Shown: in pieces, positions 27,954 to 28,087 of the stretch
Numbering within the stretch: the first letter of the stretch is position 1
Layout of the letters: every line of letters begins with the position of its first letter
Source: Escherichia coli
GTDB lineage: Bacteria; Pseudomonadota; Gammaproteobacteria; Enterobacterales; Enterobacteriaceae
Assembly (NCBI RefSeq): GCF_013122565.1
Contig: NZ_CP053258.1
Strand: one strand, 5' to 3'
Length of the DNA stretch: 64,000 bases
The notes under the pieces: model-generated
Database searches by the model: none
What the model saw: the letters and a program-made list of their open reading frames with translations, nothing else
What the model was told of the DNA's origin: nothing
Made by a program: the position numbers and the translations under genes

Positions 27954-28005
27954 TCTAAAATCCTCGGAGATGTGATCTGCCCGGCATTAAACCGCACAGA
28001 TATAA

Positions 28006-28035
28006 AAGTGAAAAAGGGGGCCATATGCAGGCCCC
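28006..28035 (-). terminator. rpsB-tsf intergenic attenuator/terminator hairpin
   Basis: Minus-strand RNA GGGGGCC-ugcaua-GGCCCCC followed by UUUUUCACUUUUAU, between rpsB stop and tsf start. Confidence 0.65.
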
Positions 28036-28087
28036 CTAACCAAACGTGTACTACCTGGTCTATAAGGGCTCGTACGAGCGTGCCTTA

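Follow-up and report, generated by a model that had tools for sequence, protein, structure and literature searches.

An ERIC-free allele of the Escherichia coli rpsB-tsf spacer with a probable leaky intrinsic terminator between the two genes

RESULTS

Layout of the rpsB-tsf spacer

The window, by which we mean the whole 64,000-nucleotide stretch of Escherichia coli DNA analyzed here (contig NZ_CP053258.1), carries rpsB and tsf on its minus strand, with the rpsB stop codon TAA at 28090-28088 and the tsf ATG at 27953. The spacer between them (28087-27954) therefore has the length of 134 bp that had been given in the original prediction. Folding of the spacer RNA yields four side-by-side hairpins (-46.3 kcal/mol, z = -2.7), which are listed here together with the other features of the locus.

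28088-28813, minus strand: rpsB (30S ribosomal protein S2), ending in the tandem stops TAA-TAA (open reading frame list and sequence)
28063-28087, minus strand: hairpin 1, UAAGG-C-ACGCUCGUACGAGC-CCUUA (minimum free energy [MFE] and centroid folds)
28071-28081, minus strand: allele-specific 11 bp, ACGCTCGTACG, at the top of hairpin 1 (pairwise alignment)
28038-28060, minus strand: hairpin 2, GACCAGG-N9-UUUGGUU, directly adjoining the terminator (fold)
28015-28037, minus strand: attenuator (intrinsic terminator) hairpin, AGGGGGCC-UGCAUAU-GGCCCCCU, about -16 kcal/mol
28004-28015, minus strand: interrupted U-tract, T5-CAC-T4 (sequence)
27975-28001, minus strand: hairpin 4, AUCUGUGCGGUUUAAUGCCGGGCAGAU, with its 3' end 9 nt before the tsf Shine-Dalgarno sequence (fold)
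27961-27965, minus strand: tsf Shine-Dalgarno sequence GAGGA (columns CGAGGA invariant in 67 spacers)
27954-28087, minus strand: the rpsB-tsf spacer as a whole, 134 bp, ERIC-free allele
27102-27953, minus strand: tsf (elongation factor Ts) (open reading frame list)

Compared with MG1655, rpsB shows no nucleotide differences (0 of 726) and encodes an identical S2 protein, and tsf shows five, all of them silent and the nearest at +368, with an identical EF-Ts protein. The region is matched at an identity of at least 99% in 5,423 of 5,426 complete E. coli genomes.

Directly upstream of rpsB, we observe an Rfam match to t44/tff (28841-28927, minus strand, 83.5 bits against a gathering score of 44); this stretch is the rpsB 5' leader, which S2 uses for autoregulation. 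On the other side of the operon, a canonical terminator lies 3' of tsf (27065-27091, minus strand), consisting of GGAGCCGCC-TGAG-GGCGGCTTC followed by T5. It corresponds to a 3' end located past tsf in MG1655, at 191745, and published K-12 long reads include transcripts that pass the tsf terminator into pyrH-frr (PMC6131387).

A terminator hairpin conserved across enterobacterial genera

The third hairpin of the spacer has a stem of 8 pairs, 7 of them G-C (A-GGGGGCC / GGCCCCC-T), and a 7-nt loop, and a run of five U residues follows directly after the stem (TTTTT at 28015-28011, then CAC, then TTTT at 28007-28004). It is essentially the same feature as the GC-rich hairpin plus U-tract that had been predicted at 28006-28035 on the minus strand, with its limits now placed at 28037-28004. 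In a pattern scan of the 2.4 kb around it, six terminator-like sites were found versus 2.9 ± 1.5 in shuffles, and a single match by pattern scan alone is weak evidence; a consensus scan ranked the third spacer hairpin (28037-28015) as the best terminator-like site of those 2.4 kb.

A comparative set of spacers was obtained by using the first 32 nt of tsf to scan a single genome from each species, which gave 87 loci from Escherichia, Salmonella, Citrobacter, Klebsiella, Enterobacter, Kluyvera, Kosakonia, Cedecea, Pectobacterium, and other genera; 84 of these loci contained the whole spacer, and the terminator was located by hairpin detection in each sequence separately. With the window and K-12 added, all 86 spacers have a G4-5CC-loop-GGC4-5 hairpin followed by a T-run, a conservation that spans more than 20 genera, with variable loops and with stems of 6 to 8 G-C pairs. 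Since the hairpin is the strongest scan match and is kept in every spacer of the set, we do not regard it as a chance occurrence. In the ERIC-free spacers the terminator starts 29 to 56 nt past the rpsB stop, and throughout the 86 spacers the chosen T-run lies at a nearly constant distance from the tsf ATG (49 to 62 nt, with one exception of 77 nt).

The element at 28037-28004 is the already known rpsB-tsf attenuator. This attenuator has been known since the 1980s and is said to have been treated by An and colleagues in 1981 and by Aseev and colleagues in 2008. In a passage of PMC2834685 that cites Aseev et al. 2008, rpsB mRNA and rpsB-tsf mRNA are described as sharing one promoter, with the monocistronic rpsB transcripts stopping at the attenuator before tsf and about one-third of transcripts reading through. 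Long-read data from MG1655 place a 3' end at the same element: for the transcription start site at 189712, SMRT-Cappable-seq calls a 3' end at 190800 in both growth conditions (PMC6131387 Supplementary Data 1). In one condition, 232 reads end at 190800 and 906 pass through (PMC6131387), counts that back the position of the 3' end and not the read-through fraction, the two conditions not being obviously consistent. MG1655 position 190800 is the C right after the T5 run and equals position 28010 of the window, the two sequences being identical there. SMRT-Cappable-seq probably also selects by size, which likewise bears on the read-through fraction. The original prediction had described the spacer as having the architecture of a partial termination that sets the S2:EF-Ts ratio, and this description finds support in the K-12 attenuator literature and in the 3' end at 190800.

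A leaky terminator as the preferred reading

We consider it very likely that the window holds the rpsB-tsf operon in an ERIC-free allele, with a leaky intrinsic terminator that gives more rpsB than tsf message. Transcription from the rpsB promoter would meet this terminator 51 nt past the rpsB stop; most transcripts would stop at it, giving monocistronic rpsB mRNA, and a smaller share would go on into tsf, and one promoter would thus yield more S2 message than EF-Ts message. The terminator would be leaky because its U-tract is suboptimal, being short and interrupted: a canonical U-tract measures 7 to 9 nt according to a passage of PMC3993855, and the U5-CAC-U4 found here is shorter. Formation of the hairpin would be independent of ribosome position because the hairpin lies beyond the ~30-nt range of a terminating ribosome, in line with PMC4824070, where the repressing effect of ribosomes on a terminator wanes at distances of more than ~30 bp from the stop codon. 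Besides the U-tract, this distance is the second feature that would account for a leak. Neither MFE nor centroid folds, with and without the ERIC, contained a convincing antiterminator helix competing with the terminator, and a fixed leak is for this reason likelier than a switch. Extrapolating from the identical terminator sequence of K-12, we infer that termination in the window strain would behave as it does there.

A hairpin of this kind might instead act as a 3' stabilizer or processing barrier, in which case full-length rpsB-tsf RNA would be cleaved downstream and then shortened as far as the hairpin, giving rise to the monocistronic rpsB RNA that is observed. Termination and trimming look alike in 3'-end sequencing and in northern blots, and in one SMRT-Cappable-seq condition 852 reads end at most 50 bp downstream of 190800 versus 63 at 190800 itself. 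However, the full intrinsic-terminator signature, including a U-run for which an exonuclease barrier has no need, is found in all 86 spacers, and in publications the element figures as an attenuator or Rho-independent terminator; trimming is in our view a very improbable origin of the rpsB 3' end. A regulated attenuator, in which an alternative RNA structure or a factor (such as S2, rpsB translation, or a small RNA) acts as the switch for read-through, would fit with the finding that rpsB translation is repressed by S2 in excess, with transcription and translation becoming uncoupled and rpsB-tsf mRNA falling (PMC10931766), the rpsB:tsf output therefore not being constant. The hairpins 1 and 2 upstream are strongly conserved and could be regulatory. 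Yet S2 exerts its effect by way of the 5' leader and polarity and not by way of the terminator hairpin (PMC10931766), hairpins 1 and 2 and the terminator stand side by side with no mutually exclusive antiterminator pairing evident, and 75% of E. coli get by with a 127-nt repeat in place of the top of hairpin 1, which speaks against a finely adjusted switch at that point. Such switching is thus unlikely, and we retain the terminator with a fixed leak as the preferred reading.

Covariation supports the hairpin next to tsf

Covariation was assessed by pair counting on an alignment of 41 distinct ERIC-free spacers of the long type. When the window fold is projected on these spacers, 95.1% of cells are paired, versus 29 to 62% in slid controls, and 7 pairs are changed on both sides, a count reached by none of 500 shuffles. 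Six of these 7 pairs are in hairpin 4, which has compensatory both-side changes in 6 of its 10 pairs, is paired in 96% of cells, and is the sole strongly covarying helix of the spacer. RNAalifold, run on 67 ERIC-free spacers, recovered hairpin 4 independently, together with just 3 pairs of the terminator, the low number being due to MAFFT having staggered the stems. This hairpin could be a 5' stabilizer of a processed tsf mRNA, a modulator of translation, or something else.

Hairpin 1, which begins at the first base past the rpsB stop and is the site of the ERIC in K-12, is paired in 96% of cells in its base stem and 83% in its upper stem across the same 41 spacers, and it is also present in Kluyvera, Citrobacter, Cedecea, and Pectobacterium. 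Hairpin 2 is paired in 97.6% of cells, with an almost invariant sequence. Hairpins 1 and 2 and the terminator are kept mainly as invariant sequence and show few compensatory changes, so that covariation does not prove their pairing.

A shorter type of spacer, of 116 to 122 bp, is seen in Klebsiella, Raoultella, Enterobacter, Lelliottia, and Atlantibacter (e.g., loci L021, L023, L047, and L057). These short-type spacers have a minimal hairpin 1 (TAAGG-N5-7-CCCTTA) and no ACCAGG/TTTGGT hairpin 2, and their terminator begins just 29 to 37 nt past the stop. The loop of their hairpin 1 (TTCTAG, TTTTAG) resembles the K-12 junction minus the ERIC (TAAGGCTTGA-TA-GCCCTTA).

The K-12 spacer differs by an ERIC element

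In MG1655, the last base of rpsB is 190599 and the first of tsf is 190857. The resulting spacer of 257 bp has the length that had been stated for K-12 in the original prediction, and the net difference of 123 bp agrees with its estimate of ~120 bp less sequence in the window. The spacers were compared by a custom affine-gap pairwise alignment and by eye, and they are not identical: where the window has 11 bp (28081-28071), K-12 has 134 bp, and the rest of the spacer is 100% identical. The window reads TAAGGC-ACGCTCGTACG-AGCCCTTA, versus TAAGGC-TTGATAA-(127 bp)-AGCCCTTA in K-12. The two loci thus share the operon, both proteins, the terminator hairpin, the U-tract, hairpin 4, and the Shine-Dalgarno sequence, with 117 bp from the 3' arm of hairpin 1 to the tsf start codon being 100% identical, and they differ in the distance from the rpsB stop to the terminator, which is 51 nt here and 174 nt in K-12.

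The 127 bp of K-12 align without gaps to the 127-nt E. coli ERIC (RU-1) consensus (PMC2759123, Table 1a) in reverse complement, with 99 of 119 positions matching (83%); the alignment covers consensus positions 5 to 123 and extrapolates to exactly 127 bp. Against the ERIC core, the central inverted repeat targeted in ERIC-PCR, the K-12 segment has 37 of 42 matches, the core being represented by what we take to be the ERIC-PCR primer-region sequence. The K-12 spacer folds at -108 kcal/mol (z = -6.9), with the ERIC forming one long imperfect hairpin on the base stem of hairpin 1 and the other three hairpins unchanged. Furthermore, the 134-bp segment of K-12 recurs at 49,035 places across 5,425 genomes; the per-genome median is 10 (range, 2 to 16). 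Consensus match, palindrome, and copy number together confirm the earlier guess that the additional K-12 DNA is an element of the ERIC/IRU type. We found no meaningful local match to the ERIC core in the window spacer (scores of 7, versus 32 for K-12), and a blastn search of the whole 64-kb window detected no ERIC copy (best E value, 0.25). The K-12 segment is thus a member of the ERIC/IRU/RU-1 family, 127 bp long and placed between genes within a transcript, and the window lacks such an element both at the spacer and elsewhere in its 64 kb. The family is reportedly covered in papers by Sharples and Lloyd (1990), Hulton and colleagues (1991), and Wilson and Sharp (2006), and variation between E. 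coli strains in the presence or absence of an ERIC is a documented kind of variation.

In the K-12-type allele, carried by ~75% of E. coli, the top of hairpin 1 is swapped for the 127-bp ERIC plus 7 bp, making a long stem-loop that the window lacks. The ERIC would lengthen the 3' UTR of the terminated rpsB mRNA from ~77 nt, as in the window, to ~200 nt and would leave the terminator and everything downstream unchanged.

The original prediction had spoken of a small repeat absent from this strain, and the absence of the ERIC stands; the difference is not a clean insertion or deletion, since 11 bp of the window are set against 7 bp plus the ERIC. For ERICs, terminal TA and a TA target-site duplication are described (PMC2229807, PMC2759123). 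The K-12 copy has neither, and it is accompanied by 7 extra bp (TTGATAA). Its termini are CTCCCCC...GGGGGAG and not TATACCC...GGGTATA, both ends having changed together so that they still pair. Because it has no TA duplication and 7 extra bp, and because 11 bp of the window have no counterpart, the K-12 copy does not look like a recent insertion.

Distribution of the two alleles

Among the 5,426 complete E. coli genomes, we count 1,326 (24%) that carry a 45-mer across the ERIC-free junction, and the K-12 segment is found at an identity of at least 95% in 4,095 records; the ERIC-free and K-12-type alleles together cover essentially all E. coli genomes. Strains with the ERIC-free allele include Nissle 1917, the type strain ATCC 11775 (= DSM 30083), and O145 and O169:H41 strains, and the ST131 strain EC958 is likewise without a full-length copy of the K-12 segment. 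Among the matches listed, genomes without the full-length K-12 segment have 2 to 4 ERIC-like places each, versus 11 to 15 in the K-12-type genomes.

Outside E. coli, 73 of the 84 other enterobacterial spacers are ERIC-free, with lengths of 116 to 153 bp. Spacers of exactly 134 bp occur in Kluyvera, several Citrobacter, Pectobacterium, and Samsonia, and the Kluyvera hairpin 1 (GCTC-GTTA-GAGC), with the 50 bp that follow it, is nearly that of the window. The ERIC-free layout with four hairpins is the general enterobacterial one. The filled (ERIC-carrying) allele, with the same left junction as in K-12 (TAAGGyTTGATrA), is seen in three Escherichia representatives (L014, L046, and L072), each with a copy 96% identical to that of K-12, in Salmonella arizonae (91%) and Citrobacter amalonaticus (94%), and also in two Enterobacter-like genomes and in Intestinirhabdus.

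Several further spacers carry ERIC sequence in other arrangements. Pseudocitrobacter faecalis (L011) has a 203-bp spacer with an ERIC at the K-12 junction whose center is replaced by unrelated sequence; its first 36 nt alone were matched by blastn, and the right terminus GGGGAGAGCCC is kept. Three Citrobacter genomes (L010, L065, and L085), with spacers of 264 bp, have an independent ERIC ~20 bp downstream of the K-12 site, inserted after CCCTTATA with a clean TA duplication and with hairpin 1 intact; given this independent insertion, the spacer is a repeated target for ERICs. Filled loci (L030, L042, L027, L070, L049, L046, L072, and L014) have ERIC-free congeners (L013, L029, L088, L018, and L061), and two genomes labeled Citrobacter amalonaticus differ in their allele, as do two labeled C. 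youngae.

DISCUSSION

History of the ERIC-free allele

The locus copies of Escherichia, Salmonella, and C. amalonaticus are nearer to the K-12 copy than are the paralogous ERICs of genomes without a locus copy (best match, <90%), which suggests that the filled allele goes back to a single old insertion. The occurrence of the filled junction across genera that also have ERIC-free members suggests either an old polymorphism crossing genera or allele exchange via the conserved rpsB and tsf flanks. The window allele may accordingly be either a retained old allele or a reimport by a short recombination tract, and the identical flanks do not discriminate between the two.

The short spacer could also be a secondary loss, derived from an ERIC-filled ancestor whose repeat was deleted or replaced, possibly by recombination with an ERIC-free donor. 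All three Escherichia species representatives carry the ERIC at the same junction, which recurs in Salmonella arizonae and Citrobacter amalonaticus, so the filled state may predate E. coli; the flanks of both E. coli alleles are identical, as a very local event would leave them. Kluyvera spacers show no difference from the window between a point 48 nt inside rpsB and the terminator loop, and a short conversion tract from a Kluyvera-like donor would leave no other trace. Flank identity carries little information, however, in genes as constrained as rpsB and tsf. Moreover, simple excision cannot have made the window allele, because it cannot recreate the 11 bp ACGCTCGTACG, which complete the GCUC/GAGC upper stem of a hairpin conserved in ERIC-free genera from Kluyvera to Pectobacterium. 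This rules out plain deletion and leaves just reimport or a retained old allele, and we consider a secondary loss possible though rather doubtful.

A more far-reaching proposal, which we put forward as speculative and improbable, is that the filled and ERIC-free spacers are an old pair of alleles crossing genera. Selection, or recurrent recombination via the nearly invariant flanks in rpsB and tsf, would maintain the pair, the reason being an effect of the repeat on how an essential operon, with a product ratio of importance, is expressed. If this were true, ERIC-free strains would have a measurably different S2:EF-Ts transcript balance.

What the ERIC may contribute and what its absence removes

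CssrA was described as chromosome-encoded Shigella sRNA A, with a northern band of ~110 nt (PMC3071730). The corresponding Rfam family (RF02798) scores 136.2 bits on MG1655 and 53.6 bits on the window, which is below the gathering score of 93. The 3' two-thirds of the model, namely hairpin 2 and the terminator, match the window at 28016-28130; the 5' part is the 3' half of the ERIC, which the window lacks, and the same terminator would end the RNA. The CssrA family thus joins the 3' half of the ERIC to hairpin 2 and the rpsB-tsf attenuator, and since the ERIC half is lacking, the window strain would be unable to make CssrA as described. Being half ERIC and half attenuator, CssrA is absent from ERIC-free strains.

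A SMRT-Cappable-seq start for tsf-pyrH-frr transcripts lies at 190705, inside the K-12 ERIC (PMC6131387), and an RNA from 190705 to 190800 would measure ~96 nt. The window has no counterpart of this position, and a consensus scan found no sigma-70 promoter for the 190705 start in the K-12 ERIC. In Yersinia, an ERIC in one orientation destabilizes the upstream message via RNase E, according to the summary of De Gregorio 2005 in PMC2229807. By analogy, it is possible that the ERIC acts via rpsB mRNA decay at ribosome-exposed RNase E sites; it might also act via the internal start at 190705 feeding tsf or via a CssrA-like RNA of ~100 nt.

The attenuator held in the window is a known one, its ERIC-free allele is widespread, and the two alleles differ by a type of polymorphism that is known as well. 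A full-text literature search for ERIC together with rpsB returned nothing relevant in the papers covered, and we expect earlier publications to have recorded the ERIC at rpsB-tsf and the fact that some strains lack it. For about one-quarter of E. coli, including Nissle 1917 and ATCC 11775, K-12 is not representative at rpsB-tsf. If the repeat alters mRNA decay or supplies a start close to tsf, the two alleles would offer a natural test of the tuning of an essential translation operon by a miniature repeat.

Two minor observations concern the Rfam matches on K-12. A match to the Vibrio AS5 family (24.6 bits, against a gathering score of 96) was rejected as a chance match to the ERIC palindrome. 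The CssrA paper labels the neighbors of the gene as map/rpsB, and the K-12 Rfam match falls in the rpsB-tsf spacer (MG1655 190606-190739, equal to L001:1107-1240); the Sf301 coordinates given in that paper appear to lie downstream of rpsB too (PMC3071730).
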